Shown piece by piece: positions 44,053-60,522 of a stretch of DNA of 64,000 nucleotides; positions within the stretch are counted from its first letter, which is position 1, and every line of letters starts with the position of its first letter. This DNA is from a virus (Duplodnaviria > Heunggongvirae > Uroviricota > Caudoviricetes), in the IMG/VR virus record IMGVR_UViG_2915331061_000005; one strand, given 5' to 3'. The position numbers and the translations under genes are program-made. The notes beneath the pieces are model-generated. The model ran no database searches. It saw only the letters and a program-made list of their open reading frames with translations, and was not told where the DNA came from.

Positions 44053-44144
44053 TCCGCGCCGGATACCTTGACGGGCCGCACCGTAAAGCGACCCGATCCC
44101 AGCCGAAAGGCACAACACGAAACGCGAAAAGGAGCAAACGAATT

Positions 44145-45065
44145 ATGACAACATACTATCCCATCAACGAAAATCTGGCCCGTGCTTCCCACGATATGCG
44201 CAGCATGAGCACCTATCCGGACGGCTATGCAACCAGAGAATACCGTGCCAGCGTGGACAAAGCCGCCGCTCTGGTCGAAGAAAAGAAGCAGAAAGTCAGC
44301 CCCTACTATCACGAAAAGCTGGACGCGCTTCTTGACAGCTACGCCCGCCGCCTTGCACAGTGGACGGACGACCACAACCGGAACGGCGCAAGCTGCCCCT
44401 CTGTGCTTGTGTGCGGTGCTGGCAACTTCCCGGTGCGGAAGAAGCAGAAGCAGAACGCCCGCGAGGATACGCTTTGGCACGAATATGAAGAAATCGAAGC
44501 CATCTTGACGAAAATCAAGGCGGTTGGCACCGGCCCCGTTGATCTGGCCGACCCCCACGCCCGCGAACTGCTCACGGATCAGCTGAACAAAGAGCAAGAC
44601 CTTCTCGAATATTGCAAGGGTGCCAATGCCTATTACCGGAAGCACAAAACCTTGCGCGGCTATTCCAACATGAGCGACGCGGCAGCCGACGCGCTCACCA
44701 ACCCGGACGCCTTTTCAATGAGCCTGTACCGCAAGCCCTACGGCGATTTTGAGTTAACCAGTATCCGCGGCAAGATCAAGCGGATTCAGACCCGCCTTGA
44801 CGAACTCGACAAGGTACAGGCCGCCGCTGCATCCGGCCCCGTTGAAGATCAGCACGACGGCTACACCTACCGTGAGAACAACGAAATCATGCGCGTGCAA
44901 TTCATCTTTCCCGGAAAGCCGGACGACGAAACCCGCGCCATGCTCAAAGAGAACGGTTTCCGGTGGGCACCCAGTCAGGGCGCTTGGCAGCGCCAGCTTA
45001 CCGCAAACGCCAAATATGCAGCGCACCGTGTCATGGAGTTTCTGGACGGCAACGAAAACGAATAA
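44145..45065 (+). CDS. Hypothetical early protein
   Basis: Internal start MTTYYPINEN (RBS AAAGGAGCAAACG) of ORF 43929..45065. Confidence 0.45.
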   Translation: MTTYYPINENLARASHDMRSMSTYPDGYATREYRASVDKAAALVEEKKQKVSPYYHEKLDALLDSYARRLAQWTDDHNRNGASCPSVLVCGAGNFPVRKKQKQNAREDTLWHEYEEIEAILTKIKAVGTGPVDLADPHARELLTDQLNKEQDLLEYCKGANAYYRKHKTLRGYSNMSDAAADALTNPDAFSMSLYRKPYGDFELTSIRGKIKRIQTRLDELDKVQAAAASGPVEDQHDGYTYRENNEIMRVQFIFPGKPDDETRAMLKENGFRWAPSQGAWQRQLTANAKYAAHRVMEFLDGNENE

Positions 45066-45171
45066 TAAAAGCGGACACCCCAGCAGGGCCGCACCGATTC
45101 AAAGCGGCCCCGCCCCATCTTCCCGGCATAAATGTCGGGAACATCACGAAAACGAAAAGGAGCTATGAACC

Positions 45172-45429
45172 ATGACAGCCAAACAGCAAAGCACCGAATC
45201 CGGCGGCGGTCTGCGCACCGTCACCCTCACCGCTGACCAGTGGAACACCCTGTATTTCTACCTTCTCACTTCCACGAAGTACCGCAACGGTGAAATTGAA
45301 GCGTGGGAAAGGCTGGCCCTTGAAACGAACGAGGACGGTTCCCCAAAGTTCATCCACGCCGCCGACAATGCGCGTTATCTCCGGGATCAGGAAAAGACGC
45401 TGCACGAAATTGCGCAAAGCATCTGCTAA
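45172..45429 (+). CDS. Hypothetical early protein
   Basis: 85 aa with RBS AAAGGAGC. Confidence 0.4.
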   Translation: MTAKQQSTESGGGLRTVTLTADQWNTLYFYLLTSTKYRNGEIEAWERLALETNEDGSPKFIHAADNARYLRDQEKTLHEIAQSIC

Positions 45430-45532
45430 CAGACCGCTCCGCCGGGGAAAATAGGAGAATTGACTTCATTTTGTAGTCGGTTGAATGCCGATCCACTGCC
45501 CCGCCGGGGTGAATCACGAAAGGACGAAACGA

Positions 45533-45721
45533 ATGTACTACTTCATTTACTGCAAAGGCCCCAACGAAAAGCGCTTCACGCTTTGCAATCCATGGAAAGG
45601 CACACGCGGCATGGGCAAAGTATATGCGCCGCGCTTCCTCAAGGATCAAGCCGACTATGCCGTTGCATGGATGGCCGAGCACAACCCCGGCTTTATCTTC
45701 CAGCGCCGCCCGGCACGCTGA
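45533..45721 (+). CDS. Small hypothetical protein
   Basis: 62 aa, internal start MYYFIYCKG. Confidence 0.3.
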   Translation: MYYFIYCKGPNEKRFTLCNPWKGTRGMGKVYAPRFLKDQADYAVAWMAEHNPGFIFQRRPAR

Positions 45722-45752
45722 ACATCACCACCACGAAAAGGAGCAACGAACC

Positions 45753-46070
45753 ATGACAACCAACGAACGCTTTCTCTCAGTCCTGCACAGGATCACTTCC
45801 TGCCGCCACTTAGCCACCGTCAACATAACGATCTGGAACAGACGCATTGAAGTCCGGCACACCGTTTTCGATGAAATGTACATCCTGCGCAGCTTTCCCC
45901 TGCCCAACACCCACAACGAATATTGCGTCTGCATGGCGGCTGCCTGCCGGTGTCTGTCCGACAAGCTGCTTTCGTGGGCAAGCGAGTACGACCACGGCAA
46001 CGACGTTCTGAACAAGCAGTACGACACTGTGAACAAAGCCTTTCGCAAGCGCTTAGAGGAACAAGAATGA
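45753..46070 (+). CDS. Hypothetical Cys-containing protein
   Basis: Internal start MTTNERFLSV with RBS AAAGGAGCAACG. Confidence 0.4.
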   Translation: MTTNERFLSVLHRITSCRHLATVNITIWNRRIEVRHTVFDEMYILRSFPLPNTHNEYCVCMAAACRCLSDKLLSWASEYDHGNDVLNKQYDTVNKAFRKRLEEQE

Positions 46071-46293
46071 CCCGTGCCCCGGTTCCATGCCGGGGCATCT
46101 TGTGATATACTTTCACTAACGAAATTGGACTTTTCAAGCACGAAAAGTTCAATTCCAGCAACGAATTTGCAAAAAAGGGGGCATTTTTACGAACGAAGTC
46201 GAATTTTTTGCACCTTGGCGTCTGGTTGCCAGTTTTGCCGACGGCACACGCGCCACGTTCGACGGACTGACCGAGGAACAGGCCCACGCCGCA

Positions 46294-46551
46294 ATGGAAG
46301 CTGCCCAGACCGAGCACGGCGACATTGGCTATTGGAACCGTGTCACGGATGTAAACTATGAGGACGGCCAGTATTGCGGCACCCTGCAGGAACCGCCCAC
46401 GGTTCATGTTGTGGATTTTTCCGGGTATGACGGGCCGCTGGACGAAAACGGCTTTCCTGTTGGCCTGCCGAACGAAATCGCCGAGTACATGAAGCAGCAC
46501 GGCGAACCGCCCACCGTTCCGAAAATCATCATCAAGAAAAACGAACCATAA
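46294..46551 (+). CDS. Hypothetical early protein
   Basis: 85-aa ORF, last gene before the terminator. Confidence 0.35.
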   Translation: MEAAQTEHGDIGYWNRVTDVNYEDGQYCGTLQEPPTVHVVDFSGYDGPLDENGFPVGLPNEIAEYMKQHGEPPTVPKIIIKKNEP

Positions 46552-46566
46552 ACGCACGAAATCCCT

Positions 46567-46612
46567 CGACGGAATTACCCGCCGGGGGATTTCTGTTTTT
46601 GACGATTCGCAA
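46567..46612 (+). terminator. Rho-independent terminator ending the early operon
   Basis: GAAATCCC-loop-GGGGATTTC followed by TGTTTTTG. Confidence 0.55.
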
Positions 46613-46799
46613 GTTTGTTTTTCTGAGCGGTTCGGAGGTTTCGCGGAAGCCCTTCATTCTGCACGCGCATAAATTCGCTTCATTCTCTACCCTATAGTGT
46701 CTTTCCGGCACGAATTAAGATCGCTGAAGTTCGATTCTAAGGGCCTGTTTTTGCAGGTTTTCTGTCAAAAATCAGGCATAAGCCATTTTACAGCCCCTT

Positions 46800-47300
46800 T
46801 TAATCGCGCGCGTCATACGCGCGTGAGAGCAGTTCTTCGACCATCGGGACTTCATCCAGCATGGAACCCAGAACGACCAGCGCGAACTTTTCCCACCGCT
46901 GGGCTGTGATCTCTGTTTTTCTCAGTTCGCGGGCTATGGTTTTCCAGCCTTTTTGTAACGACGGATCACTGTAGACATACCGCCCGCACAGGATCGTTTT
47001 GTAACGACTGTTCAGCCGGTCTAATTGCCCCCGGATTGTTGTCTGATCCGCACGGAGAACATCCTGCCGAACACGAAGTTCATTTTCCCGGCGCTGGCAC
47101 TCCACATCATCGGCCAGTTTCACAGCCAGCGACGCGGTACTATCTCCCGGCGTGCTGCCGTGCGGCATACCGTCCATAGCAATGCCCTTGATGGGATTGT
47201 AGCGATCTCGCAGTTCTGCCAGCTCAATGTTGACATCATCAAGCTGCGCTTCAATCCCGCCAAAGTAGCGCAAAATCATTTTCGTTTCTTCTGCCTGCAT
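46800..47300 (-). CDS. Putative transcriptional regulator with C-terminal sigma-70 region-4-like HTH (possible RinA/ArpU-type late activator)
   Basis: C-terminal GWKTIARELRKTEITAQRWEKFALVVLG resembles a sigma region 4 HTH. Assignment tentative. Confidence 0.3.
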   Translation of the reverse strand: MQAEETKMILRYFGGIEAQLDDVNIELAELRDRYNPIKGIAMDGMPHGSTPGDSTASLAVKLADDVECQRRENELRVRQDVLRADQTTIRGQLDRLNSRYKTILCGRYVYSDPSLQKGWKTIARELRKTEITAQRWEKFALVVLGSMLDEVPMVEELLSRAYDARD

Positions 47301-47447
47301 TTTGCCCTCCTACGCTCCGTACCGTCAAAATTCTGTCGAGAAGATAGGCCCTGCACCGGGCACACGCGCAACCTCCGTACTGCCGCCGGTCATCTGGGCG
47401 ACACACCGGCCCAGTTTGGTATACGCCACATACTCCCCGTCTTTTGC

Positions 47448-47942
47448 TCATTCGAGGAACTGTTCATAGTTTTTTCTGGCTTCTTCCACGGTGCTGTTGA
47501 TCTGGGCACGATCATAGCCCATAGAATCCAGCGCTTCGATGAAGAACCGGATCACGAGATCACCAGCGGCACGCCGTTCGGCCAGCGCGTCTTTTTCACG
47601 CTGTTTGCGCGGGTATTGTCCCGCCGGGAGGACAAACGGCTTATCCAGCATCGGTGCTGTGCGCTCTCTCAGCTTCTCGCGGGCTTTCGGCTGCCCGTAG
47701 GCGCTCATTTCAACCGTGTATACCTCTGCCCTGTGGTTCATTTCCGTGCAAAGCCGCTCCTGCTTGTCCCGGTCAAAATCCAACGTGTCATTGGCTGCGA
47801 TCATGGTGCAGTAGCTCACCACCTCGCCAACGGCCTGCCGATTCAGCGTCAGGTTCTTTCTGGTGTTTACCTTTTCGGCGCACCGGGCAAAGGCATTCTG
47901 TGCCATATGCATAGACACTGCCCTTGGGATTCTTCTGCTCAT
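47448..47942 (-). CDS. Hypothetical protein
   Basis: 164-aa ORF. Confidence 0.4.
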   Translation of the reverse strand: MSRRIPRAVSMHMAQNAFARCAEKVNTRKNLTLNRQAVGEVVSYCTMIAANDTLDFDRDKQERLCTEMNHRAEVYTVEMSAYGQPKAREKLRERTAPMLDKPFVLPAGQYPRKQREKDALAERRAAGDLVIRFFIEALDSMGYDRAQINSTVEEARKNYEQFLE

Positions 47943-47948
47943 GATGTT

Positions 47949-48458
47949 TCATCCTTTCCTTTCGGTCTGTTGGGCGCACTTCTTCCATGCTTTGATTTCT
48001 GCTGCAGTATCAGGGGTAATGTGCTCCACAAAGCGCCAGCCCCGCGGCTCCGCCACAAGGTCGATGAATATACGGCGGCGGTGGATGTAATCGCGCTGCT
48101 GCCGCCGGGTGAATTTGCTTTTCACCTCTACAACCTCAACTGTGCCATCTGCATAAGTCAGCACAAAATCCGGGGTATAGTGCATCGCCGGTAGTTTCAC
48201 ATTGCCGTATTCTTTTTCGGGCAGCATGGTAAACCTGCGGTGCGATTCCACCTTCACGATCTCCCCGCGCTGGACTTTTGGCAGAATCATTCCCATGTAG
48301 TAGTCGTACTCGCCCCTGCTGTCAAACTCCCGTCCTGTTTTCTTGGCGGCTGCAGCCACGGCTTCCAGCGTCGGTGCTTTTGCTCTGCATCTGGCCGCAA
48401 TCTGTGCTTCCGCCTGTGCCCGATACTTTGGTGGCAGGTCAGAAAGTTCCATCCTCAT
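47949..48458 (-). CDS. DUF1064/PD-(D/E)xK nuclease-like protein (possible Holliday-junction resolvase)
   Basis: Start MRMELSDLPP with CAGGAGGAA RBS. D..E.K-type motif (TPDFVLTYADGTVEVVEVKS). The upstream 119 codons of the ORF-track entry are rejected. Confidence 0.45.
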   Translation of the reverse strand: MRMELSDLPPKYRAQAEAQIAARCRAKAPTLEAVAAAAKKTGREFDSRGEYDYYMGMILPKVQRGEIVKVESHRRFTMLPEKEYGNVKLPAMHYTPDFVLTYADGTVEVVEVKSKFTRRQQRDYIHRRRIFIDLVAEPRGWRFVEHITPDTAAEIKAWKKCAQQTERKG

Positions 48459-48460
48459 AC

Positions 48461-49321
48461 TCAAGGCCGGTTCCTCCTGTTCTGCTGCATCCCAGTCTCT
48501 TTGCGATATAGGCGCACGATCAGGTGCCGGGTGTTGTTGCCGGTGATTATGGGTTCGCAGTAGTGCAGGGTGTATCCGGGGTACATCTTCTCCCAGAATG
48601 CACGATCTTCCAGACGGTTCTCGCAAACATCTTTCAACTTGGTGCGGCTCATTTTCCCATCGTTCGGGCGGGGCATTTTCGGCGGTTTCAGCCCGCGGCT
48701 CTGCCGCCAATGGCGCTTGCACCTCACATTCTTCATGATGTACTTTGCAAGGCTCGTGATGTAGCCATGATCGAAGTGTAGAGGTTCGCAACGGGCCATG
48801 CCGCGCCCGCTCCACGCTTCCTCTACCATTTCACGGGTCAGACCGTAAACGCGCTGCATAATGACATGGTGATGGTGCTTTCCCACCCACACCCCGTCAA
48901 CATACGTCGAGTATTCATGCACGACGATCCACTTCGGGTGCCGAATGCCTTTTTTATCGCACATCCGGTATAGCTTTTTCATGGCGGCGGAAAAATCCTT
49001 ATCCACACGCTTTGTGTCCGCCGGGTCGGGCCGGTGTTCATCGTCATAGGTGTATGTAACAGAATAATCGCTCTTGTGGAAGTTGCGCTGAACCAACAGC
49101 TCTAAATACCGTCCACTTTTTCGCAAATTGTACGCTTCCTTCGCAATGGAGCTTGCCAGCTCTTTTTTCTTGCGGGTGCTGGCCTTGTGCTGCTGTTCCG
49201 TGATCTCGAAAAAATCCACCTGCATGGTGTCAGCCGTGGCATAGTCTTTGCCGCAGATAAATTTTTGCTCTCGTACTCTGAAACCCGCGGTCATGCTCTC
49301 CACGTCCTCCTTTCCGTACAC
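48461..49321 (-). CDS. Replication initiation protein (Rep_trans/HUH rolling-circle type)
   Basis: HUH-like GKHHHHVIM and Y-motif LAKYIMK. 286 aa. Confidence 0.5.
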   Translation of the reverse strand: MYGKEDVESMTAGFRVREQKFICGKDYATADTMQVDFFEITEQQHKASTRKKKELASSIAKEAYNLRKSGRYLELLVQRNFHKSDYSVTYTYDDEHRPDPADTKRVDKDFSAAMKKLYRMCDKKGIRHPKWIVVHEYSTYVDGVWVGKHHHHVIMQRVYGLTREMVEEAWSGRGMARCEPLHFDHGYITSLAKYIMKNVRCKRHWRQSRGLKPPKMPRPNDGKMSRTKLKDVCENRLEDRAFWEKMYPGYTLHYCEPIITGNNTRHLIVRLYRKETGMQQNRRNRP

Positions 49322-49607
49322 GTCATGGAATTTTCTGAATCTTGAACCACAAACACGAGAAGGGAACGATGCAGAGGAACAACACCGGGCCGCGTTCCCT
49401 ACGATCCTGCTTCCGGCAAGCCATCAGAACGCTGCCCTCGTTTTCCCTCTGCACTCCCTTTCCCCGCCGGGGGAAAGCTCCTGTTTTTCTCTGATTTCTC
49501 AGAATGTCCCTTAGTTTAGCTCCGATATACAAGCCCCTTGCCGCCTCGTCAGGGCGGCAATTTAACGACGGACGCTCTTTATATATAAGGTAGAGGGCTT
49601 GTCTTGC

Positions 49608-49760
49608 TTATTTCAGCAGGGCGAATTTGAACCAATCCGGCAGGTCGGATGCTGCAATAAAATACTTTACCACCAGCACCACGGCAAGAATAATCACCGG
49701 TGCCAGCAGGTACAGCCAGCCGATAGCGTAAGCGCCGAACTCACTTTTCTTCTTTTTCAT
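49608..49760 (-). CDS. Small membrane protein
   Basis: Start MKKKKSEF then hydrophobic helix. Confidence 0.35.
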   Translation of the reverse strand: MKKKKSEFGAYAIGWLYLLAPVIILAVVLVVKYFIAASDLPDWFKFALLK

Positions 49761-49895
49761 CACTATCTTCCCTTCCTTCCCACACAGGGCAGCTATCTTC
49801 CGGGTCTGTGAAATCCGCCCGATGCTCAGAATTTCCATTGAAGCACACCCATGAAAAGTTATCATGCCATGCGCAGGTGAAACACTCTTTTTCCA

Positions 49896-50360
49896 TCACT
49901 CACGTTCCTCCCAGTTCCAGCAGGAAGCTTCCCGGCCTGTCACGGGCTGAGAATGATGTTTGTTGAAACACGTCCCGTCCTGCAAATGCCACCTGCAAAA
50001 TTCACAGCTTTTGTGTGAAGTGACTTTTGCGCCGCACTCTGGGCAGTGCTTAAACTTGTACTCGCAAAGTTCTTTCTCCCCGTCGTCCGGGTCGATTTTG
50101 ATTTGCTTCCAGTCCTCAACGTGAATGCCGCACTTGTGGCAAATAAATTCGTCGCAGTCTATGTAGTCCCGGTTCTCGTTGTATGTCAGCGGTTGCAGGC
50201 TCTCCGGGGCAATGGTCGGTTCGGCATTCAAACTGCCCTCGATCATCTGCACTACACTGGTTTTGATTTTCCCGTGTGTCAGCTCCCCTTTCAGTGCATA
50301 CTCTATGTTCTTGAGTACCTGCATGAAATGGTTTGCATCAACCAGACGTTTTTCTTTCAT
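49896..50360 (-). CDS. Cys-rich zinc-binding hypothetical protein
   Basis: CHKCG...CPECG...CEFC motifs. Confidence 0.4.
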   Translation of the reverse strand: MKEKRLVDANHFMQVLKNIEYALKGELTHGKIKTSVVQMIEGSLNAEPTIAPESLQPLTYNENRDYIDCDEFICHKCGIHVEDWKQIKIDPDDGEKELCEYKFKHCPECGAKVTSHKSCEFCRWHLQDGTCFNKHHSQPVTGREASCWNWEERE

Positions 50361-50583
50361 TTTCTTTTCCCGCTTTCTTTCTTGGCGTTCGCTTCTTCTT
50401 TGGCAAATCCGGTATCGTCACCACAATATCCCTTTGTTTCTCCATTTCCGCCGGGATTGCCTCGACCAGACTTTTGAATTTTTGCAAGGTTTGAACCTCC
50501 GTCGCCGCGAAAATGAACTGCGCCAGTTCTTCCGGTGTTCCCTGCTGGACGGAATGACCGTCCGGGTATGTTGTGATCGTCAT
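50338..50583 (-). CDS. Hypothetical protein
   Basis: 81 aa. Confidence 0.35.
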   Translation of the reverse strand: MTITTYPDGHSVQQGTPEELAQFIFAATEVQTLQKFKSLVEAIPAEMEKQRDIVVTIPDLPKKKRTPRKKAGKENERKTSG

Positions 50584-51071
50584 TTTTCTTCGCCTTTCAG
50601 TTTCAGTTCCACTTTCGGCATGGGCTGATCCGAACGGTTCATCGGTTCATAGAAATCGACCCACTGTCCACCCTCCGGGAAGTCGTGCCACGCAAGCGCG
50701 TACCGGATCGTCAGCCAAACGGTTTCTGCTCTGTATGCTTCTTTCATGGTTGTGTCGATAGATGCAGGCGGAACATTCTGCCTCCAAAGTGCGTCCATGC
50801 CCTGCCGCATCTGGTTACGAAGCCGCATACACTTGAGAAAATCCGCTTCGTGGTCTTTATGAAACTGCTTTCGTTCTTCGGTCGTGTGGCACCGCTTTTC
50901 CATCTTGTCCACATAATCCCAGCAGCAAACCTCATTGGTGAAGTCCTCAAACTGGCCCATGCGGAACCGGAGGTATTCTTCGCACGCCTGCTTCACGGCC
51001 TGTGCTGTCTCCCGGCTCATGGTGATGGTCACGGCCTCAACCTCTGCCGGGGTCTTATTTTTTGTTACCAT
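50580..51071 (-). CDS. Hypothetical protein
   Basis: 163 aa. Confidence 0.4.
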   Translation of the reverse strand: MVTKNKTPAEVEAVTITMSRETAQAVKQACEEYLRFRMGQFEDFTNEVCCWDYVDKMEKRCHTTEERKQFHKDHEADFLKCMRLRNQMRQGMDALWRQNVPPASIDTTMKEAYRAETVWLTIRYALAWHDFPEGGQWVDFYEPMNRSDQPMPKVELKLKGEEK

Positions 51072-51080
51072 TCTGTCACC

Positions 51081-51473
51081 TCAACAAATCCTGACAGCCG
51101 GGGCACCGTAGCCATCCCGTACCAGAACCCCCTCTTTTTCCGTAAAAAACATTGTCGTCTTGAACGGAAAGTTTGCTCTGTCGATGCCAGCTTCGGCGGC
51201 AGCATCGGCCAGCATTTTGCACGGGCCGTAATCACTCCCGATGGAAAAGCCGAAAGCTTGAATGCTTTTCGCGTATTCCTCAATGCTTTTTGCCAATGCC
51301 GCCTTGAATGTGTTCAGCTGATCCAGCGTAACGCTCTGTCGCATCGTATCCGCAAGGAAGCACACTGCAACAGAGGTAAAACTATCGTCTCCGTTGCTAT
51401 GCGGCTGGTGATCCATCAGCTTTCCAGCCCACCAGCTGACAGCCTTTTCAATATCATCCTTTGCCAAAATCAT
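51081..51473 (-). CDS. Hypothetical protein
   Basis: 130 aa. Confidence 0.4.
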   Translation of the reverse strand: MILAKDDIEKAVSWWAGKLMDHQPHSNGDDSFTSVAVCFLADTMRQSVTLDQLNTFKAALAKSIEEYAKSIQAFGFSIGSDYGPCKMLADAAAEAGIDRANFPFKTTMFFTEKEGVLVRDGYGAPAVRIC

Positions 51474-51856
51474 ACCGTTTCCCCGCCTTTCTTTTTCAGA
51501 GGTTCAGGCCCCGTTCCATAGTCCGGCACCCAGCCGCCCGGCCAGTCGTGCCGCTGGCTGCGTTCGTATTTCTTGACCATTGCGGCCAGCTGAATAGCTT
51601 CCACCGCTGCGTGGATTGCCACATCATAAATGAGATTCAGGTGCTCCCGCTTCATGGGTTCGTTTCTCTTGACATCTCGCCACAGCCGGATTGTCAAGCC
51701 AAAGTGGAGCTTCCGCACCTCGTCTATCAGTTCGTCCAGTTCTTCCCGGATCACCGCATACCCTTCATGCGGACTTGCGAACATCCGAAAGCGGCGGTTT
51801 GCTGCCGCCAGCTCCTTCTTTGCCAGAGCACGGACATCTTTTGTGATAACGTCCAT
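51470..51856 (-). CDS. Hypothetical protein
   Basis: 128 aa. Confidence 0.4.
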   Translation of the reverse strand: MDVITKDVRALAKKELAAANRRFRMFASPHEGYAVIREELDELIDEVRKLHFGLTIRLWRDVKRNEPMKREHLNLIYDVAIHAAVEAIQLAAMVKKYERSQRHDWPGGWVPDYGTGPEPLKKKGGETV

Positions 51857-51858
51857 GG

Positions 51859-52506
51859 TTATTCCTCCGCCCGGCTCTTGATTTCAGCCAGCAGATCATC
51901 CAATGGAACATCGGCGAGGCAAAACCCGGCTTCTCCTTCATCCTCGGTAGAGACCCAGAGTGTAGAGGGAAAGTACAAAGCGGGGCGAACACCATAGGAG
52001 TAGTAGTACCAGTAGCGGTGGCTGGAGCCATCGGTGTCGACGTACCAGACGTAGTAGTCACTGTCGGTGAGCGGAGAGCGATTCGGCGTACCGTAAGGCG
52101 TCGCCAACCACCACGGCGTATCTACCTTCGGGATCAGCCGCCAATACTTTCCATACTGACGCAGGGTCAACAGGCCGATTCTGTATTCAACGGTTCCGTA
52201 TTCGGTCTGTCCGGTTGTGTCCTGCAGGTCGATCTTGAACGGAATAAAAGTATCCAGCGGCGTACCCTTCTCGGTAAACTCTGCCAGACAGTTACCCAGA
52301 TACTTCATAACATCGCTCCGGCGCAGATCGTTGGGACACTCCGGGTCGTCGCCGTCACGGAACGGCATTTTCGTCCAAATGTCCTTTGCCAGCACCAGAC
52401 AACCGTGTTCGTCTGCATCCAGCTTCACAAGCTCTTTGCCCAGCGCCTTGAAGATGCCGCCATTTTTCACATTGCCCAAAGTTGTGCTTTTCAAAATCTT
52501 GCTCAT
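51859..52506 (-). CDS. DGR target 2: small protein with C-terminal variable repeat VR2 (…YYYSYGVRPALYFPSTL)
   Basis: Contains VR2, a 102-nt match to the TR with 16 mismatches, all at TR adenines. 215 aa. Confidence 0.65.
   Translation of the reverse strand: MSKILKSTTLGNVKNGGIFKALGKELVKLDADEHGCLVLAKDIWTKMPFRDGDDPECPNDLRRSDVMKYLGNCLAEFTEKGTPLDTFIPFKIDLQDTTGQTEYGTVEYRIGLLTLRQYGKYWRLIPKVDTPWWLATPYGTPNRSPLTDSDYYVWYVDTDGSSHRYWYYYSYGVRPALYFPSTLWVSTEDEGEAGFCLADVPLDDLLAEIKSRAEE
51979..52080 (-). repeat. DGR variable repeat VR2 (remote, ~36.6 kb from TR)
   Basis: Ungapped alignment to TR 15364..15465. Every difference is at a TR A (plus-strand T). Confidence 0.75.
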
Positions 52507-52524
52507 GGTCGTTTCTCCTTCTTA

Positions 52525-53166
52525 TTACTCCTGCTGCTCGGAATCCTTTTCGGCGTTCAAATCATCGAACGTCTGTTCCGGTTCTTCCTGTTCACCGATG
52601 TGAGTTTCTGCCAGCATTGCAACCAGTTCTTGCAGCTTTGCTTCTGCGTAGTCCGGCACCGTATATGCCATAACGGCGGCTCGTACCCTCATGCCGTTCT
52701 TCACGACATAATAAACCGTTCCGTCGGTTTGTTTTCTCTGGTAATAGCGGATAAAACCGTTATTCTTAATTTCATCCTCCAGCGGCGCAAGGTGCGACTG
52801 ACAGATAATGCCGACCATGTGGCGATCCTCGGTCACAAGCGGGATAAGGATTTCTCCACTGCAGTAAATACCGATGCCCAGTTTCTTCACTTCGACTTCA
52901 TCCTTAATTGTGTCGTCAAGATTGAAACCATAAAAATCAATTTTGTATGCACAGTCGAAGTCGTTGTAAACCACCTTTTCGATCATGGTATCCTCGCTGA
53001 TTCCCAGCATAGCGCCCATCTGGTTGCGGTTCAGCGGACGCGGGAAACCGGTAGCGCAGTAAATCGCCGACGCAGTTCCAATGTAGAAATCATCACTCTC
53101 GTCGTTATGGAAAACATTGCAGACAAGCTGCCGCTTGACCATCTTTGTCAGCCCTGAAAGTTTCAT
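52525..53166 (-). CDS. Hypothetical protein
   Basis: 213 aa, acidic C-terminus. Confidence 0.45.
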   Translation of the reverse strand: MKLSGLTKMVKRQLVCNVFHNDESDDFYIGTASAIYCATGFPRPLNRNQMGAMLGISEDTMIEKVVYNDFDCAYKIDFYGFNLDDTIKDEVEVKKLGIGIYCSGEILIPLVTEDRHMVGIICQSHLAPLEDEIKNNGFIRYYQRKQTDGTVYYVVKNGMRVRAAVMAYTVPDYAEAKLQELVAMLAETHIGEQEEPEQTFDDLNAEKDSEQQE

Positions 53167-53369
53167 CTTTTGACCACCTCCACGTCCGGTTTTTCCGTTT
53201 CACTAAACCTCGGATAAAAGGTCATTGCGCACATCCGTGCCTCACGGAGTGCTGCATCTGAGCTTTTTGCGTCCAGCTTGTACGGTAGCTGCATCTTGTT
53301 TTTCGTGTAGCTGTCAATGCCGAACAGCATGATACTGAACTTTGCCATTTTCTGCTCCTTTCTGCTCAT
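53163..53369 (-). CDS. Small conserved hypothetical (MAKFSIMLFGIDSYTK...), paralog of 115..300
   Basis: Same gene plus downstream terminator/leader arrangement as module A. Confidence 0.5.
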   Translation of the reverse strand: MSRKEQKMAKFSIMLFGIDSYTKNKMQLPYKLDAKSSDAALREARMCAMTFYPRFSETEKPDVEVVKR

Positions 53370-53464
53370 TTTCTTTCGGTGGGCACTTCCGGGCTTGAAC
53401 CGGGCGGGGCCTATTCCCTATGCTCATATAAAAAGGAGCCGCCGCTCTGGGCGGCTCCAAAAGA

Positions 53465-54376
53465 TCAGTTGATGCCGTTGATAATGGGGATGCTGTTACC
53501 ATCGCCAACATAGGCAGGCAGTTCACCGTTCCAGCGGGATTCCACGTCGGTGATCTTGTAGTATTCCAGCAGGTTGCTGTTCAGACTGTCGTTCAAGGCG
53601 CGGTTTGCTTCCGCCTTTTTCTCTGCAACGTACAACTCTGCGTCCGCTGCAACCTTAGACTTTTCCGCTTCCGCATTGGCTGCGATCAGGTCAGCGTCCG
53701 CCGTGGCCTGTGCTTCGACACGGCGCTTGTCGGCGTCAGTCTCGGCTTTTTCCTTTTCCTGCTGGGCCTTGACCTTTGCTTCCACCGCATCGGTAAAGGT
53801 ATCAGTGAAGTCAAAATTGGTTACGCTGATATACTGCAGGTCGATGTTGTACTGTGCCAGCACTTCCCGCAGTTTCGTGTCCATCTTGGAAGCGACTGCA
53901 TCCCGGTTAGAAATCAGGCTGCTTGCATCGTAGTGGGCAACTACAGCTTTCACCGTTTCAAGGACACGGGGAGTAATCAGGGTGTCCTCATACTTTTTGC
54001 CGACCTCTTTGTAGATGGTCATTGCATTTGCCTGATTGATCCGGTAGCCAACCGCCACACTGGTGGAGACTTCCTGAATGTCAGAACTGAACGCTGACAA
54101 GTCCATGCTCATTTCCTGAACACGGTTATCCATCTTCACGATGGACTGCCACGGGGCCTTGAACACCACACCTGCGTCCTTCGTGCCATCCTCGACTTTG
54201 CCAAAGGTTGTGACGATGCCGGTATAACCGGTAGGGACATAGGACACACAGGAAATGCCGATAAAAATGACGGCCACCACCGCCGGGATGATTGCAGTTC
54301 TTTTTGCATCATCCGAGAAAATCAGGATAGCCAGCGCGATCAGTACAAACAGTGCGCCGATAATAAAAAGAATCAT
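53465..54376 (-). CDS. SPFH/band-7 (prohibitin/HflC-like) membrane protein
   Basis: N-terminal TM, then SPFH core (GYTGIVTTFGKV...), then C-terminal coiled coil (EAKVKAQQEKEKAETDADKRRVEAQA). Confidence 0.7.
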   Translation of the reverse strand: MILFIIGALFVLIALAILIFSDDAKRTAIIPAVVAVIFIGISCVSYVPTGYTGIVTTFGKVEDGTKDAGVVFKAPWQSIVKMDNRVQEMSMDLSAFSSDIQEVSTSVAVGYRINQANAMTIYKEVGKKYEDTLITPRVLETVKAVVAHYDASSLISNRDAVASKMDTKLREVLAQYNIDLQYISVTNFDFTDTFTDAVEAKVKAQQEKEKAETDADKRRVEAQATADADLIAANAEAEKSKVAADAELYVAEKKAEANRALNDSLNSNLLEYYKITDVESRWNGELPAYVGDGNSIPIINGIN

Positions 54377-54468
54377 GTTTCCTCAACTTTCGCTCATGCG
54401 TTTATGTACGGGCGAAAGCTGGATTAAATCGGATCGTGGTAAATAGGGACGCCACTTTGATAATCCCA

Positions 54469-54690
54469 TTACAGGAAGCTCACCTGCCCCTCTGGATTCT
54501 TATTTTTCGTTTCGCGCGGCTTGTAGTCCTTTTCTTCGTTCAGGACATCAACCGGATTAAATTCAAACTGCTTGCAGCGGTTCGGGCTGACAATTTTCTT
54601 TTTATCCCGGATTTCTTTTCTTGCTTCACAGTAAATTAGATCGTCGTCCTGCAGGGACGCCAGTGAACAATATCTGCAATACTGGGTCAT
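54469..54690 (-). CDS. Zinc-ribbon small protein
   Basis: CRYC...C..RC motifs. Confidence 0.4.
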   Translation of the reverse strand: MTQYCRYCSLASLQDDDLIYCEARKEIRDKKKIVSPNRCKQFEFNPVDVLNEEKDYKPRETKNKNPEGQVSFL

Positions 54691-54691
54691 T

Positions 54692-54901
54692 TCACAGCTC
54701 CAATGCGTCGATAATCTCCGCTACCATATCATTTAGAAAAGCAGCAAGCCTACGCAGAAGTGACCTTTTGGGCTGGTTGTCGTTCGGCTTGCGGCTGTCG
54801 TTCTCAATTTCAATTCCGACAACATAGTTATTGTCTCCGACAACCGTTTGCTGGATTTGAATTGCATTATTTCCTGCCTTTTGAGACTGCTTCACATCCA
54901 T
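54692..54901 (-). CDS. Hypothetical small protein
   Basis: 69 aa, specific to module B. Confidence 0.35.
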   Translation of the reverse strand: MDVKQSQKAGNNAIQIQQTVVGDNNYVVGIEIENDSRKPNDNQPKRSLLRRLAAFLNDMVAEIIDALEL

Positions 54902-55143
54902 ACTTCGTCCCTCTCGTATTGATCTTTCAGGGCAAAGTAAGTATCGAAAATGAGCTTGTGCCCCGTCCCGGACGTTTCATGCTCGACCACTTCCCTGACG
55001 GGTAAAGTCACCCTTTCGCCAAATCGTCCCTTGAAAATTCTCATTTCAAGCGATCCATCCCGGATGTTTCGCATATATTCAAACCCATACCCATCCTTCT
55101 GGGCCTCTGCTGCAACTTCTTCCAGTGCTCTTTTTATCTTCAC
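54892..55143 (-). CDS. Hypothetical small protein
   Basis: 83 aa, overlaps its neighbours by a few nt. Confidence 0.35.
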   Translation of the reverse strand: MKIKRALEEVAAEAQKDGYGFEYMRNIRDGSLEMRIFKGRFGERVTLPVREVVEHETSGTGHKLIFDTYFALKDQYERDEVWM

Positions 55144-55146
55144 CGC

Positions 55147-55641
55147 TCACCCTCCAAGCGTCGGATCAGGGCATTCCCATTTGTAGTCCTTAAATTTGAT
55201 TCTCCGGTTCGTGACAAGTCTGCCCTCCACGATCTCAATTTCCCTGTTGAACTCCAAACCCATTTCATATCCATACACGCGGAAATCCACATTGTACTTT
55301 TTGGACATTTCAATGTAGGGCGTTTCATCAACGTTCCATGCTGCTTTCATGCTTACAACAAGGATCGGCTTTTCATCTTCTCTGTAAGAATCCCCGTAGA
55401 CCCCCTTTTCAACAAAGTTTCTTTTCGTTCCTTCGATATAAGCGTCCTCGATCGTATCCAAACGCATCTCGCGGGCTTTCGGATCATGTTCAAATACGAC
55501 AGCGTCATCTACAAGTTCATCTTCGTATGAGCCATCTCTAAACCACTTTGTGAAGTAGCAGTGCAGGCATTCTTCCACCCACCGCTTAATATCTTCCGGC
55601 TTTCCGCGGATTTTAAGTTTTCCTTTTACCCAGTTCGCCAT
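55147..55641 (-). CDS. Hypothetical protein
   Basis: 164 aa, specific to module B. Confidence 0.4.
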   Translation of the reverse strand: MANWVKGKLKIRGKPEDIKRWVEECLHCYFTKWFRDGSYEDELVDDAVVFEHDPKAREMRLDTIEDAYIEGTKRNFVEKGVYGDSYREDEKPILVVSMKAAWNVDETPYIEMSKKYNVDFRVYGYEMGLEFNREIEIVEGRLVTNRRIKFKDYKWECPDPTLGG

Positions 55642-55644
55642 AGT

Positions 55645-56181
55645 TTATTCCTCCTTCAAAACCCATACTCTATGATTTCCACAGCCGTTCCACTTCTCGG
55701 CATTCTCGTGAGTGTCCACAGCTACATCAAGGTGTTTTCCCTGAATGGCGGCTCCTTTGTCCTGCACAATGCGGATTCCTACGCCCTCAATGTACAGAAC
55801 CGTTCCATACGGAAAGATGGACGTGTCCGCTGCCACAGTGACGCCTGCCTGTATAGGCTGGCCGCTGGCCGTAATTCCGTGTCCTTCTCCGCAGATATGT
55901 TCGTACTGTTCTGTGCAATATGCCGTGCAGAAAAATGTACCTGCCTCTGTCAGCTCGATTTTCCTGTCCGCTGTTTCATCAAGGCGAATTTGCAGAGAAT
56001 CAATAACTTCTTCGTCCTCTACAGCCCGGTCAAGCCAGTTCTGGGCACGGCTTGCGTAAATATCCCGCTGGGTCTCAAGGTCTGCAATACGGCCTTTCAG
56101 TACGCCGACCTTTGCGCTGTTGACGATCTCAGCCGCGAAGAACAGCACCAGAATTGCTTTCATTTTCCGTGTCATTTCCAA
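55645..56181 (-). CDS. 3D-domain (MltA/YuiC-like) protein, paralog of 1067..1606
   Basis: TAYCTEQYEHICGEGHGITASG...VAADTSIFPYGTVLYIEGVGIRIVQDKGAAIQGKHLDV. Confidence 0.65.
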   Translation of the reverse strand: MEMTRKMKAILVLFFAAEIVNSAKVGVLKGRIADLETQRDIYASRAQNWLDRAVEDEEVIDSLQIRLDETADRKIELTEAGTFFCTAYCTEQYEHICGEGHGITASGQPIQAGVTVAADTSIFPYGTVLYIEGVGIRIVQDKGAAIQGKHLDVAVDTHENAEKWNGCGNHRVWVLKEE

Positions 56182-57539
56182 ACCACCTTTTTGTTACTGC
56201 AATTGGAAATTCTTCAATTTCAGACGCCCACACTGCTGTACCTGCTCCATATGCCGTCTCCCACACAAGCGGGAAACCGCCAATTCCATCAAACAGGCTT
56301 CCCAGTGTTGGCTTATCTTTCAGGTATGGCCGCATCTTCTGGGCAATCCAGAACCACTGCGGAAGGGCAATGCTGTTTCCCAGTGCCTTATAGCGCGGCG
56401 TATCTGCCGGTTTATGCTTTTTCCCTTTGGTGTCCGTCCATTCCCCGATGTCTGTCCATCCGTCCGGGTATCCCTGCAGGCGCTCACATTCCGTCGGGGT
56501 CAATCTTCGGACGATCCAGCGCACGACACGTTCCGCCACAAGGCATTCCCCACCGTTTCCGATATTTCCCGTTTTCGCTTTCAGTGTTGCACTGCTGTCG
56601 CTTTCCTTGTATGTAGAGAAAGTCTGCTCGCTATAGGTTTTTCTTTCAGCAACCTGCGGCCCCGCTGTCGTCCCGGTATTCTTGCAACTCAAGGCTGCCG
56701 CCTTGCTTCCGGTAACAGCTCCGTTGTACAGATCGACCGCAATAGCCGTATAGTCTGTGACGCGGCTCTCATGATCCCCGGTAATGGTCGGAACTGTCTT
56801 ACCGTTGCCATTTCCACGAGCGTCAAAGACGATTGGCTGGAAAAGGGTCTGGTCTTGAAGCGTCGAGAGCGTTCCCGTCTTTTCTGTCTGCACCAGTGCG
56901 CCTTTCCCGCCTCCTGCACATCCCGAACGGATTTTCAAGGTGTAGGCTGCCTCCCCTGCCACCACTCGATCATGTCCAGCAGGGCAGTTTTGAGTAAATC
57001 CGGTAACGCTTTGCCACGTCGGGATGCTCTTGTCAGGATTCCCTGACAGGCCCGTGCGCTCAAAAAGTATCTCTGCGGCACATTGACCTCTAAAATCTGC
57101 GACAACTGCGATACGCTTTCTACGCTGGGGCACTCCCCAACGTTCAGCGTTGAGCAACCGCCATGCCAGAGACCAGCCGTTTCCGATGATTGCTCCGGCC
57201 TTGCACCATCGCCCCCCCCGCAGGTCGAGGAATTGAAACGTCTGGTTGTGCCGCGTGGGCAAGTTTTTCCAGCACGGTTCTGAAATCTTCTCCGCCGTTT
57301 GAGCTGAAAGCTCCGGGAACATTTTCCCAGATAGCGAAAGCTGGATACATTCCATTTGTGGCAACCCTCATTTCTACAATAACTCTTATGGCTTCTGTGA
57401 ACAGACCGGAATTTTTCCCCTCAAGGCCAGCTCTCAAGCCTGCCATGGACAAATCCTGACAAGGCGAACCAAACGTGATGCAGTCCACGGGTTCAATCTG
57501 GTCTCCATGGATTTTAGTAATGTCGCCCAAATGAATCAT
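56129..57539 (-). CDS. Circularly permuted DNA (cytosine-5)-methyltransferase, second copy, split at a G8 tract (plus-strand C8 at 57212..57219)
   Basis: Same motif order and same frame offset as 1509..3117. ORFs 57144..57539 and 56129..57364. Confidence 0.7.
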
Positions 57540-57736
57540 TCTTCTGCCTCTTTAGATTTAATTGCCATCCACCACAGTGCGGCATGAAGCGCGAAGCCCG
57601 GACAAGCCTGAACCGTTACCTGACTTGCCACAACCTTAATCGCTTCTTCGATTTCTTCTTGTTTCGGCATTGTCGCGTGAAGGAATCTCGCCTGTGCAAT
57701 TTTCTCCAAAATCCTTATTGCATCGACGTAAAGCAC
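57536..57736 (-). CDS. Small hypothetical protein
   Basis: 66 aa, ATGA overlap with the MTase start. Confidence 0.3.
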   Translation of the reverse strand: MLYVDAIRILEKIAQARFLHATMPKQEEIEEAIKVVASQVTVQACPGFALHAALWWMAIKSKEAEE

Positions 57737-57772
57737 TCTTTTTACCTCCTATTGATTTTTTCATAGTTCTTA

Positions 57773-57849
57773 CACGGGTGGCCGGAATCGAACCGGCTTG
57801 CCTGCCGATGGGGGATCAGAACGGCGGACAACTTCCTTGCTACACCCGC
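57773..57849 (-). ncRNA. tRNA-like structured element, second copy
   Basis: ~90 % identical to 3462..3538. Differences in the long hairpin partly preserve pairing. Upstream terminator at 57856..57890. Confidence 0.35.
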
Positions 57850-58247
57850 ATATCAGAACCCACCGCGCAAGAGAGCAGCGCGGCGGGCCGGTCTTGGTCA
57901 AGCAGACCTTCCACCTTTGGCTTGGGTGGATCGGACAAGGCATTTCTTCGCTCATGCGGCGTGCACGCCCAAATCGGTTTCCGCACCGTCATGCGGGCGT
58001 AGCTTGGCAGAAAGGCAGCGTGGTCTTGCACCAGCTTACACGGGAGAAACGCCGCCATACGGCACCCTCTGCCCCTGTCGGTGCGTCAAATTATGGACAA
58101 ACGCACCGGCTTCCATGAATACCTGCTGCAAAGCGGCGCGGACGGGGTGTGGCCCCGCTGGCGGTTTCCCCCTGCGTCGTTTCAAGGTTCAGCCCCGCGC
58201 CATATAAAAGCCGCCGCGCTGACGCGGTGCGTGGCGGCTCATTCATA

Positions 58248-58421
58248 CCTTAGATGTTTTTGTATCAGCAGCACCCTTGGTTTTTTCGTAACGTTCACAG
58301 TTCGTATCATAGCCACTGCACGGTGCACACCGTTTGTGGGTGATCTCGAACGTGTGCCTGCACTGTTCATTTTTGTGCAGGTCTTTTTCGGTGGGACTTC
58401 TGTTATGTACCTTCATTTACA
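58248..58421 (-). CDS. Small Cys-rich protein (EQCRHTFEITHKRCAPCSGY..C)
   Basis: 57 aa. Homologous to the C-terminus of 3956..4402. Confidence 0.35.
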
Positions 58422-58424
58422 GCC

Positions 58425-58991
58425 TCAGAAAGGAACTTCATCGTAGTGTGTAGCGATCATATCCGCGAAGTGCAGACACAGGGCTTCCGGGTAGCGGTCA
58501 TAAACAGCACTGAGCGTATCCCAGTCCTGCGACCCGCTGTATGCTCCCATGTGCCAGCGAATCGCCACGATCTCCCGCGCCGTCAGCTTGATGTACTGCT
58601 GTGCCATGATGACGCTTCCTTCTCCATGGCCTACCAGACCGGCGTCAAAGTATTCGTACTCACCTTTGCCTTTATCGCGGTACTTGCCCACCTTGCAATA
58701 GTCGTGCAGAAGCGCTGCCGCAAGAACTTCATTCCGGTGACATTTCTTGAAAGCGTGATTCGTTCTGCACAGTTCCATTGCCGCCTCTGCCACACAAACC
58801 GAGTGCTCACACAGACCGCCGGGATGGTTGGAATGGTGCTTAATGCTTGCAGGCTTTTCAAAGAACCCCAAAGCCACCATCTGCTGCCAAAGGTTTTCCG
58901 CTCCCGGACGATTAGCAAGGCCGCTCTCCGCCCAGAGAACCTCAAACTTTTCTTTCGGCTTCATGTCCTCATACAGTTTTTCGTTATCCAT
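58425..58991 (-). CDS. HD-domain phosphohydrolase
   Basis: HHSNHPGGLCEH...ALLHDYCK metal-binding H..H...HD motif. No counterpart in module A. Confidence 0.65.
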   Translation of the reverse strand: MDNEKLYEDMKPKEKFEVLWAESGLANRPGAENLWQQMVALGFFEKPASIKHHSNHPGGLCEHSVCVAEAAMELCRTNHAFKKCHRNEVLAAALLHDYCKVGKYRDKGKGEYEYFDAGLVGHGEGSVIMAQQYIKLTAREIVAIRWHMGAYSGSQDWDTLSAVYDRYPEALCLHFADMIATHYDEVPF

Positions 58992-58994
58992 GGT

Positions 58995-59147
58995 TCGGCT
59001 CCTTCTGTTTCAAAAATTCTGCCCGGCCTGCCGGGTATCTTGTCGGTCTGTCGAAAATCTCCGGGTGCTTTTCGAGCATATCCAAAAGCATCTCCCGCAT
59101 GGACGCCGCCACAAAGGGCGTAAATTCACTGCTCACGCTTCCCCGCC
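58995..59147 (-). CDS. Small conserved hypothetical (RPTRYPAGRAEF)
   Basis: ~50 aa. Paralog of 4383..4547. Confidence 0.3.
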
Positions 59148-59212
59148 TTTCCACTTGTATTTCTGGCAGCGGGTTTTATTTTCGTTCCTCCCGCCATTGG
59201 AACCGCCTTGTG

Positions 59213-59509
59213 TTAGTCCTCCGGTTCAAAGAACATTGCCACAAAGGCTTTCAGCTGGCTCACCGCCGCTTCTTTTTCAGCTTCCGTCTTGGCCGTCTTT
59301 TCTGCCCAGCAGTCCTTGACCATTTCATTGATGATCTCAAACATGCTGTCTTTCAGGTCTGACAGATTTTTCTCGTCGTCGGCCACCTCCATAAGGACAC
59401 GGGCCACAATAAGCTCTGCCGCCGTCATCATGCCAACCGAACCGCCGTGAATGCTGACTTCCAGACCATCAGCCGTTCCCACGGCTGTAATTTCCACATT
59501 ACAGTTCAT
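59213..59509 (-). CDS. Hypothetical protein
   Basis: 98 aa. Confidence 0.4.
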   Translation of the reverse strand: MNCNVEITAVGTADGLEVSIHGGSVGMMTAAELIVARVLMEVADDEKNLSDLKDSMFEIINEMVKDCWAEKTAKTEAEKEAAVSQLKAFVAMFFEPED

Positions 59510-59525
59510 GCTCTATCCTTCAAAG

Positions 59526-59875
59526 TCAACCGTTCTGCAGTTTGTTTGCCAGCGCCACAATGAAGTCCTTGAAGCCCGGCTCTGTCTCTGCAAACTGCCG
59601 TGCCATGCGGAACCCTACCGTCTCGCCAACAGGAGGCTTTTCCTTCTTCTCTGCCGGAGCCGCCTTTCCCTGCGCTTCCAAATCGTTCTGCACTGCATCA
59701 GGAATTTTGTCCTGAATCTTCTTGATAACGTACGGACGAAGCGGTTCGTGAACTTCTGCTACAACGCTGCCCACGATCTGGATCGTCAAATCCAGCAGAT
59801 CAAGCCCGTTTCCCTTGAACTCGACCGACGCACCGCTGCCCTTGACCTCTCCGTGAATAAATGCGTATGCCATAC
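59526..59875 (-). CDS. Hypothetical protein (AF.HG...NG.D family)
   Basis: Start MAYAFIHGEVKG with RBS AAAGGACAAAGAG. Homolog of 5055..5357. Confidence 0.4.
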
Positions 59876-60038
59876 TCTTTGTCCTTTCTGCTTGCAGGTA
59901 AATTTTCGGATATGGGGGTGCGCCCCGGAGTTGACACCGGGCGGCGGGGCTTGACACTCCCCGCCTGCACTGGCCGCACCATATAAAGGCGGTGTCGGAC
60001 ATACCGCCTGCCCATGCGGGCCGCTCTGGCGTGTTCTT

Positions 60039-60224
60039 TCAGCCCTTGCCAGATAAGGCTTCATCTCGCCGACGCCGCCGTTCTTCGCACTGACGGCGGA
60101 TGATCTCTTTTCCCTTGCGAATACGCTCGGTTTCTTCATATCTCCACCTGCCGTAGGACAGCCCCGCGGCGTCGGCCTGCCGGACATCCAGCATCAGCTT
60201 GTCCGGCTTCATCCTTTCGGCCAT
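60039..60224 (-). CDS. Small protein with DVRQADAAGLSYGRWRYEE motif
   Basis: Paralog of the C-terminus of 6364..6711. Confidence 0.4.
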   Translation of the reverse strand: MAERMKPDKLMLDVRQADAAGLSYGRWRYEETERIRKGKEIIRRQCEERRRRRDEALSGKG

Positions 60225-60310
60225 TTGCTCATACCCTCGTGCTCCTTGTTGTGCTTGTACTCCCCGCCGTGCTATAATTTGAACATATAAAATGGGGAGG
60301 GGGTGAATTT

Positions 60311-60520: not shown

Positions 60521-60522
60521 TC

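Follow-up and report, generated by a model that had tools for sequence, protein, structure and literature searches.

Evidence that a small DUF6273 protein is a second, non-adjacent target of the DGR in a Toutatis/Lelie-like prophage

A prophage carried in the window analysed here (a stretch of 64,000 nucleotides of viral DNA, IMG/VR record IMGVR_UViG_2915331061_000005) has a single diversity-generating retroelement (DGR) and two variable repeats (VRs), one beside the DGR cassette and the other, VR2, in a remote gene that encodes a small protein. We are confident that VR2 is an authentic, naturally active, non-adjacent second target of that DGR. The conclusion is carried by the restriction of VR2 differences to adenines of the template repeat (TR) and by the hypervariability of VR2 among close relatives. 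The two-target arrangement, the DUF6273/C-type-lectin (C-lectin) nature of the protein and its non-adjacent position are already known from the literature of 2023-2024. As a discovery the system adds little; its remaining value lies in the question of what the small target binds, and whether it does so on the virion or inside the cell.

The prophage and its DGR cassette

The prophage and the elements of its cassette are located as follows.

10806..63968, no strand assigned: Toutatis/Lelie-like prophage carrying the DGR and both targets, ~53.2 kb, delimited by blastn against Lelie (PP479942.1)
12684..13943, minus strand: large DGR target of ~419 amino acids, with an N-terminal DUF6273 C-lectin domain followed by an Ig-like domain (PF19789, E = 1.7e-39; Big_9; phrog_10993, E = 8e-146); Toutatis gp82
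13335..13455, minus strand: VR1, the variable repeat of the adjacent large target, 121 nt
13964..15193, minus strand: DGR reverse transcriptase (RT), 409 amino acids (PF00078 RVT_1, E = 3.3e-19; LGYQTSQ motif), whose Lelie and Toutatis orthologues are annotated as reverse transcriptase
15364..15484, minus strand: TR, between Avd and RT
15535..16110, minus strand: Avd accessory protein (phrog_3206, 'Avd protein of DGR', E = 4.9e-36); Toutatis gp79 is annotated as Avd

Faecalibacterium phage Lelie (PP479942.1) matches the prophage at 98.6% identity and FP_Toutatis (NC_047915.1) at ~98%. In the blastn map, window positions 10806-39962 correspond to Lelie 29163-1 and the match resumes at window 39963 with Lelie 53400 downward; window 62274-63968 matches Lelie 30853-29158, which is the large serine recombinase. 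Judged from this map, the prophage is an integrated, circularly permuted copy of a Lelie-like genome. The distance of 36.6 kb between TR and VR2, given in an earlier note on this DNA, holds for the integrated prophage and not for the circular or packaged genome, where the two are ~16-17 kb apart across the att/integrase side. The published distance from TR to the second target in Toutatis is 17,480 nt (10.1101/2024.10.15.618418).

Positions 1..10805 of the window (compare 53156..63492) are not host DNA; they form the right arm of another, diverged Toutatis-like prophage. It lies in tandem and in the same orientation, is 72-87% identical at the nucleotide level in blocks, and has its own large serine recombinase (9275..10912, plus strand). 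By synteny, its homologue of the small target is expected just outside window position 1. The prophage junction, window 10806, equals Lelie 29163; with the stop codon of the Lelie integrase at 29057, this junction is within the 3' end of the integrase ORF, so that the last ~35 codons of the neighbour's integrase ORF come from the left end of the prophage studied here. The attP site is thus located inside the recombinase coding sequence (junction 10806; recombinase 62274..63968). A tRNA scan made in search of an att site found no tRNA. Two segments of the prophage, 40233..45528 and 60825..62273, resemble Lelie little or not at all. The first is the accessory block (on the opposite strand in Toutatis, and including primase) and the second the immunity-repressor region, and both modules have therefore been swapped relative to the closest published phage.

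The cassette runs in the order Avd, TR, RT, large target. The Avd ORF as listed begins at 16143, and the ATG at 16110 is the likelier start. VR1 (13455..13335) aligns to TR 15484..15364, and its mismatches fall at TR adenines without exception in the window (10/10), in Lelie (17/17) and in Toutatis (15/15). The large target matches phrog_10993, 'Hoc-like head decoration'; its domain content places it with the tentaclin or 'Hoc-like' type, and it is not a demonstrated tail fibre.

RefSeq lists the Toutatis TR as a CDS of 50 amino acids, 'DUF6273 domain-containing protein' (gp80; L007 19048..19200, equal to NC_047915.1 49048..49200). This CDS is most likely a mis-annotated non-coding TR, and phrog_32827 (50 amino acids) was probably derived from such ORFs. 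Downstream of TR, the TR-RT spacer (15245..15340, minus strand) contains a strong hairpin, CGCTTGCCGATGCAGGCAAGTG, which may belong to the DGR RNA structure recognised by RT-Avd; the overall fold of the spacer is not significant against shuffles (z = -0.63).

The second variable repeat and its diversity

The second target and its repeat comprise three features.

51859..52506, minus strand: small DGR target gene, 215 amino acids; the same gene as Lelie orf58 and Toutatis gp24 (YP_009797461.1)
51949..51993, minus strand: candidate IMH-like 3' boundary element, the 14-mer GGTGTTCGCCCCGC plus a ~30-nt flank, TTGTACTTTCCCTCTACACTCTGGGTCTCT, from the alignment
51979..52080, minus strand: VR2, variable repeat in the small target (the second one of the DGR), codons 143-176

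The 215-codon ORF was confirmed, with VR2 in frame. TR, VR1 and VR2 were aligned without gaps, anchored on the shared 14-mer, which is found three times, at 13.3, 15.4 and 52.0 kb; all elements are on the minus strand. Over the 102 nt that VR2 (52080..51979) shares with TR (15465..15364), the two differ at 16 positions, and all 16 coincide with one of the 33 adenines in that stretch of TR (hypergeometric P = 6e-10). The recount reproduced the coordinates and numbers of the earlier note exactly and placed no difference off a TR adenine. Read in the frame of VR2, TR gives RSPNTNNNNNVWNVNTDGSNNNNWYNNSYGVRPA, with 14 AAY codons and an A in 19 of its 34 codons. This AAY-codon design is that of a classical DGR, and stop codons cannot arise from it. 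The likeness drawn in the earlier note between the peptides YSYGVRPALYFPSTL and DSYGVRPAFILPSTL is correct, but the former is not the C-terminus of its protein, since 39 residues follow VR2, and the label 'fibre' given to the latter is inaccurate.

The first base of VR2 (window 52080, codon 143) is C (Arg143) in the window and in two of its relatives (L024 and L049), as in TR, and T (Cys143) in the other 22 close relatives. The difference may stem from cDNA replacement that varies in its 5' extent, or VR2 may simply be polymorphic at its boundary.

The boundaries of the repeats were considered separately for the two sides. On the 3' side the 14-mer is common to TR, VR1 and VR2, and the flank occurs only in VR1 and VR2 and is absent after TR. 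The flanks of VR1 and VR2 are alike at 24 of 30 nt and use identical codons for all seven shared amino acids. This difference between the VRs and TR parallels that between IMH and IMH* in phage BPP-1, and by analogy we infer a candidate IMH role for the element. In the protein, the flank corresponds to a conserved beta-strand (family consensus GVRPALxLxSxLLVS), so the conservation of the flank could be at the level of the protein and not of an IMH. Unlike in BPP-1, no inverted repeat of at least 7 nt was found within 40 nt downstream of VR1 or VR2, and in a search for a downstream hairpin or cruciform the DNA folded no better than shuffles (z = +0.36 and +0.45). A hairpin downstream of the VR is not universal among DGRs. 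On the 5' side, the boundary of mutagenesis is set by the extent of TR/VR homology and differs between targets (PMC5758913), a rule that the shorter VR2 fits.

We propose a mechanism whose retrohoming steps are modelled on Bordetella phage BPP-1. The Avd-TR-RT cassette (13.96-16.1 kb) would transcribe TR, and a complex of RT and Avd would copy it to cDNA, misincorporating at template adenines. The cDNA would replace the homologous stretch in two genes, as VR1 in the adjacent tentaclin-like gene and as VR2 in the gene for the 215-residue early-region protein. Replacement would be limited on the 3' side by the shared GC-rich 14-mer with its VR-specific, IMH-like flank and on the 5' side by the end of TR/VR homology, which would make VR2 (102 nt) shorter than VR1 (121 nt).

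The window, Lelie and Toutatis have one and the same TR, but each has its own VR1 and its own VR2. Between the window and Lelie, 19 of the 20 nucleotide differences in the 648-nt gene lie within VR2. In IMG/VR, 52 loci with the small-target gene were found; the set for analysis consisted of 25 copies with an identity of 97.4% or more outside VR2. No two of these 25 have the same VR2. Each of the 33 TR-adenine sites is substituted in at least one genome, and 46% of the cells at these sites differ from TR. At non-A sites 3.8% of cells differ over all 25 copies, a figure that becomes 0.5% (7/1428) when the first (boundary) base and four outlier copies (probable TR variants or a deletion) are left out. 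Outside the VR the minor-allele fraction is 0.8%. The VR2 variants that the earlier note had proposed to look for in related genomes are thus abundant. The published Lelie study could not make a between-genome comparison for Lelie (PMC11792537), so the 25-genome comparison is a modest addition.

The same pattern is seen at the protein level. A protein database gave 812 relatives, the best 120 of which are 215-residue proteins that are 85-93% identical, and 105 distinct VR peptides were counted among 106 sequences. Entropy before, within and after the VR is 0.12, 1.37 and 0.11 bits. Since two TR subgroups are mixed in this set, counts at single positions are approximate. Tyr, Ser and Gly are frequent at the diversified codons, as would suit a selected binding surface, and the ORF is intact in all relatives, at 213-218 amino acids.

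A few VR2 changes do not involve adenines. TAT>ATT is common to Lelie (L001) and L016 in the 3' part of VR2; L015, L022 and L026 have a block of non-A changes in common, probably reflecting a variant TR; and L028 has a 12-nt deletion in VR2. In a second subgroup, 80-86% identical and including MT836117 (L003), VR2 is one codon shorter.

Fold, genomic setting and possible role of the small target

The small target matches phrog_9958 over its full length (E = 2.5e-83), and the large target matches the same family over residues 85-252 (E = 1.8e-15). By BLASTP the two targets are similar only in and immediately around the VR (residues 132-191), which argues that they are old paralogues and not the result of a recent fragment copy. 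PF19789 (DUF6273) scores 23.4 bits against the small target of the window, with a gathering threshold of 23.5. At E ≤ 0.001 it matches 40 of 61 aligned family members, and the RefSeq name of Toutatis gp24 is 'DUF6273 domain-containing'. An exhaustive family search gave 601 clusters (50% identity), many of them stand-alone proteins of 190-260 amino acids; the domain fusions seen in longer members are limited to DUF6273 itself and one C-terminal fusion to DUF5983.

The AF2 model of the small target (pLDDT 93.1, pTM 0.83) has a C-type-lectin-like fold, as the earlier note had guessed, with the variable residues on a surface hairpin and loops toward the C-terminal part of the domain. More exactly, the variable codons fall in a short helix, in a beta-hairpin formed by strands 152-156 and 162-166, and in the loops next to these. 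Structural relatives include dozens of C-type lectins and the DUF6273 domain of an IgA peptidase (PDB 9qa6); a BFVD fold search returned only other DUF6273/DUF1566 phage proteins, with uninformative names. The protein consists of a stand-alone DUF6273/C-type-lectin-fold domain, an acidic linker (residues ~189-200, low pLDDT) and a C-terminal helix (residues 202-214). The motif of this helix, L-x-D-[YF]-S-x-[DE]-E-L-L-x-E-[IV]-x-x-R, is kept in homologues that are only 34-56% identical. No signal peptide or transmembrane segment was detected in the small target (maximum Kyte-Doolittle 19-residue window 0.77), and it has no Ig-like domain. In our model the product would be a soluble ligand-binding module whose hairpin and flanking loops (residues 146-171) are randomised at up to 19 codons, and the conserved C-terminal helix would probably dock it onto a partner.

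The gene lies outside the structural module, as had been claimed earlier. It had also been described as next to the accessory module; it is instead ~11.5 kb inside the right end of the prophage, in an early/replication operon. Genes are tightly packed here. The RBS of the small target, AAGGAGAAA, is good, lies 7 nt before the ATG and stands 18 nt after the upstream stop codon, and the next gene begins 2 nt past the small-target stop. In the Toutatis annotation the co-oriented block starts with integrase, repressor, a cro-like regulator, an HD-domain protein, two DNA methyltransferases and a 3D-domain protein, and continues with prohibitin, gp23, gp24 (the small target), a regulator, a replication initiator, an endonuclease and antiterminator Q; the structural and lysis genes come after it. 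This gene order suggests that the small target is expressed early. A promoter scan gave no more sites than were found in shuffles, so the timing is read from gene order only.

Pfam and PHROGs assigned functions to only two of the immediate neighbours, a transcriptional regulator and the SPFH/prohibitin protein. The gene for the latter, an SPFH/Band-7 (prohibitin-like) membrane protein of the early region (53465..54376, minus strand), is followed directly by the strongest terminator-like hairpin of the region.

53435..53458, minus strand: strong terminator-like hairpin, a 9-bp stem with 8 GC pairs and a T-run, by pattern match only

The hairpin shares the orientation of the small target and precedes it by ~0.9 kb. 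The SPFH gene and the hairpin may together form an autonomously expressed moron.

The setting of the small target recurs in more distant lineages. In the independent lineage L062, whose small protein is 40% identical, an RT and a 615-residue DUF6273 target come first, then lysis genes, and after these a 237-residue DUF6273 gene; this gene lies ~9.6 kb from TR, and its VR has 12 of 13 mismatches at TR adenines. The small gene of L060 (56% identical) stands among methyltransferase, HD, 3D and replication genes, and that of L061 (46% identical) among small early-type genes. On the gene order of these genomes, a large target beside the RT combined with a small target among the early genes is a conserved design. 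A conserved partner gene was sought in the same three lineages: the upstream 213-residue gene and the downstream 128- and 163-residue genes are kept only in L060, and not in L061 or L062.

As to function, we lean slightly toward an accessory receptor- or adhesin-type binder, in line with proposals in the literature, docking by means of its C-terminal helix. Two features speak against a receptor-binding role, namely the early-operon position, which is not with the virion genes in any of the three lineages examined, and the lack of an export signal. The alternative is that the small target is an early-expressed, diversified binder that acts inside the cell and is neither part of the virion nor receptor-binding. 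The DGR would then tune a cytoplasmic interaction, for example in neutralising variable host defence or host-takeover targets or in excluding competing phages. We regard this as a serious alternative, possible rather than probable. It is consistent with the co-orientation of the gene with, and its embedding among, immunity, methyltransferase, replication-initiator, endonuclease and antiterminator-Q genes (in Toutatis), with the same kind of position in the lineages at 56%, 46% and 40% identity, and with the absence of a signal peptide or transmembrane segment. The small target is also a core gene that is kept even in Toutatisviruses without a DGR (10.1101/2024.10.15.618418), and cytosolic targets are known from cellular DGRs (PMC7517822; 10.1101/2023.09.22.558884). 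Against it, we found no effector or enzymatic domain and no known anti-defence similarity (PADLOC and dedicated anti-defence libraries were outside the scope of the searches), and a presumed virion protein of tentaclin type has the same VR scaffold and TR. Virion proteins, moreover, need no signal peptide, and lysis frees all phage proteins. The want of a partner gene conserved across lineages and the derivation of expression timing from gene order only likewise weigh on this side. We regard as rather doubtful the more specific proposal of a cytoplasmic hypervariable binder that tracks variable host or competitor factors (defence components, rival phages), a DGR-driven 'intracellular antibody' coupled to a partner by its helix.

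A further reading concerns VR2 itself and not its product. VR2 might be a fossil, either a piece of the large target left by duplication or a site that was once targeted and at which diversification has ended; we consider this highly improbable. In its favour, read mapping in Lelie induction experiments shows no variation peak at either VR (PMC11792537), so that DGR activity is deduced from between-genome diversity and was not seen in real time, and some Toutatisviruses keep the gene without a DGR (10.1101/2024.10.15.618418). Against this stand the 25 distinct, adenine-restricted VR2s in 25 near-identical genomes whose small-target genes otherwise vary by 0.8%, BLASTP similarity to the large target that is confined to residues 132-191, and an ORF that is intact in all relatives. 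The 25-genome comparison effectively refutes the fossil reading. A duplicated fibre fragment, which the earlier note had raised as a counter-explanation, was rejected because, by BLASTP, only the VR and the sequence immediately beside it resemble the large target and because the VR is hypervariable. Least credible of all is maintenance of the VR1/VR2/TR similarity by homologous recombination or gene conversion and not by retrohoming into VR2: three ~100-nt repeats of ~85-92% identity do coexist in one genome, but conversion would homogenise them, whereas TR is invariant, the VRs differ only at A and by different substitutions in VR1 and VR2, and the directional, adenine-specific A>G/T/C changes are a DGR signature, so this explanation was rejected.

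Comparison with known systems

VR2 as an active second target agrees with what has been reported for the same gene elsewhere. Outside the VR, the small target is 99.8% identical to Lelie orf58 and 97.6% identical to Toutatis gp24, and TR, gene position and DUF6273/C-lectin assignment are identical. The VR2 allele differs, with 16 substitutions in the window, 15-17 in Lelie and 13-14 in Toutatis. The prophage is also unlike both in adjoining a second related prophage, and unlike Lelie in its accessory and immunity blocks. Lelie was described as having two VRs, in a 'large' and a 'small' DUF6273 target with function unassigned (Microbiol Spectr 2024, PMC11792537). In FP_Toutatis the gene with the second VR was reported as core, being present in 98.8% of 173 Toutatisviruses, with a DUF6273 assignment and a C-lectin-like AF3 model, and some Toutatisviruses without a DGR still keep both targets (iLund4u preprint 2024, 10.1101/2024.10.15.618418). 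The novelty that the earlier note attached to the second target accordingly falls away. So does the rarity it implied for a two-target DGR, since two targets are present in ~13% of DGR cassettes, and 'many examples' are on record of a phage DGR that serves both an adjacent target and a non-adjacent one in the same prophage, at <50 kb (Wu et al., 2018; PMC5758913). Beside these non-adjacent phage targets and the multi-target DGR of Treponema denticola, the window case is one of the same kind, with no difference in principle.

Contributed here are the VR2 diversity of the Lelie/Toutatis clade (25/25 distinct), the conserved C-terminal helix, the early-region recurrence in lineages of 40-56% identity and the structural link to the DUF6273 domain of the IgA peptidase. 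These results sharpen the question of ligand and location and do not settle it. They describe a core, hypervariable protein of lectin fold, devoid of a signal peptide, which several lineages of phages of a key gut commensal encode with their early and not their virion genes. If it acts inside the cell, phage DGR biology would extend beyond receptor recognition; if it is an accessory adhesin of the virion, it would be a further example of a known paradigm.

Another described parallel is in gut phages whose two-target DGRs combine a tentaclin with a small 'tgt2', for which receptor binding was hypothesised (Baykov, 2023; PMC10743442). In the gut myoviruses nd4 and nd12 one TR serves two targets, and tgt2 is a single DUF6273 C-lectin domain flanked by short helices (PMC10743442). 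As in the window, the VR is at the 3' end of tgt2, VR2 is shorter than VR1, the variable part is a beta-hairpin, and the partner tentaclin has an N-terminal C-lectin domain and Ig domains. These are different phages with different sequences, the two tgt2 proteins being only 24% identical to each other, and the window protein is likened to them by description. Both targets are termed part of the 'cassette' in the nd4/nd12 papers, which do not discuss an early-gene position. The large target (DUF6273 plus Big_9) fits the tentaclin family (Baykov, 2023), and the small target, with no Ig-like domain, does not.

The small-target system likewise resembles the prototype, Mtd of Bordetella phage BPP-1, in its C-type-lectin fold, a VR near the C-terminus, an AAY-rich TR, adenine mutagenesis and a candidate IMH-like distinction between the 3' flanks of VR and TR. 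The small target does not have the other features of the Mtd family, which are N-terminal beta-prism and beta-sandwich domains, together with the C-lectin domain, in a trimeric fibre-tip protein. A relative outside DGR biology is the N-terminal DUF6273 domain of the Thomasclavelia ramosa IgA peptidase (PDB 9qa6). That domain is not diversified and belongs to a secreted, cell-wall-anchored bacterial protease; it has a C-type-lectin-like core and is dispensable for IgA cleavage.
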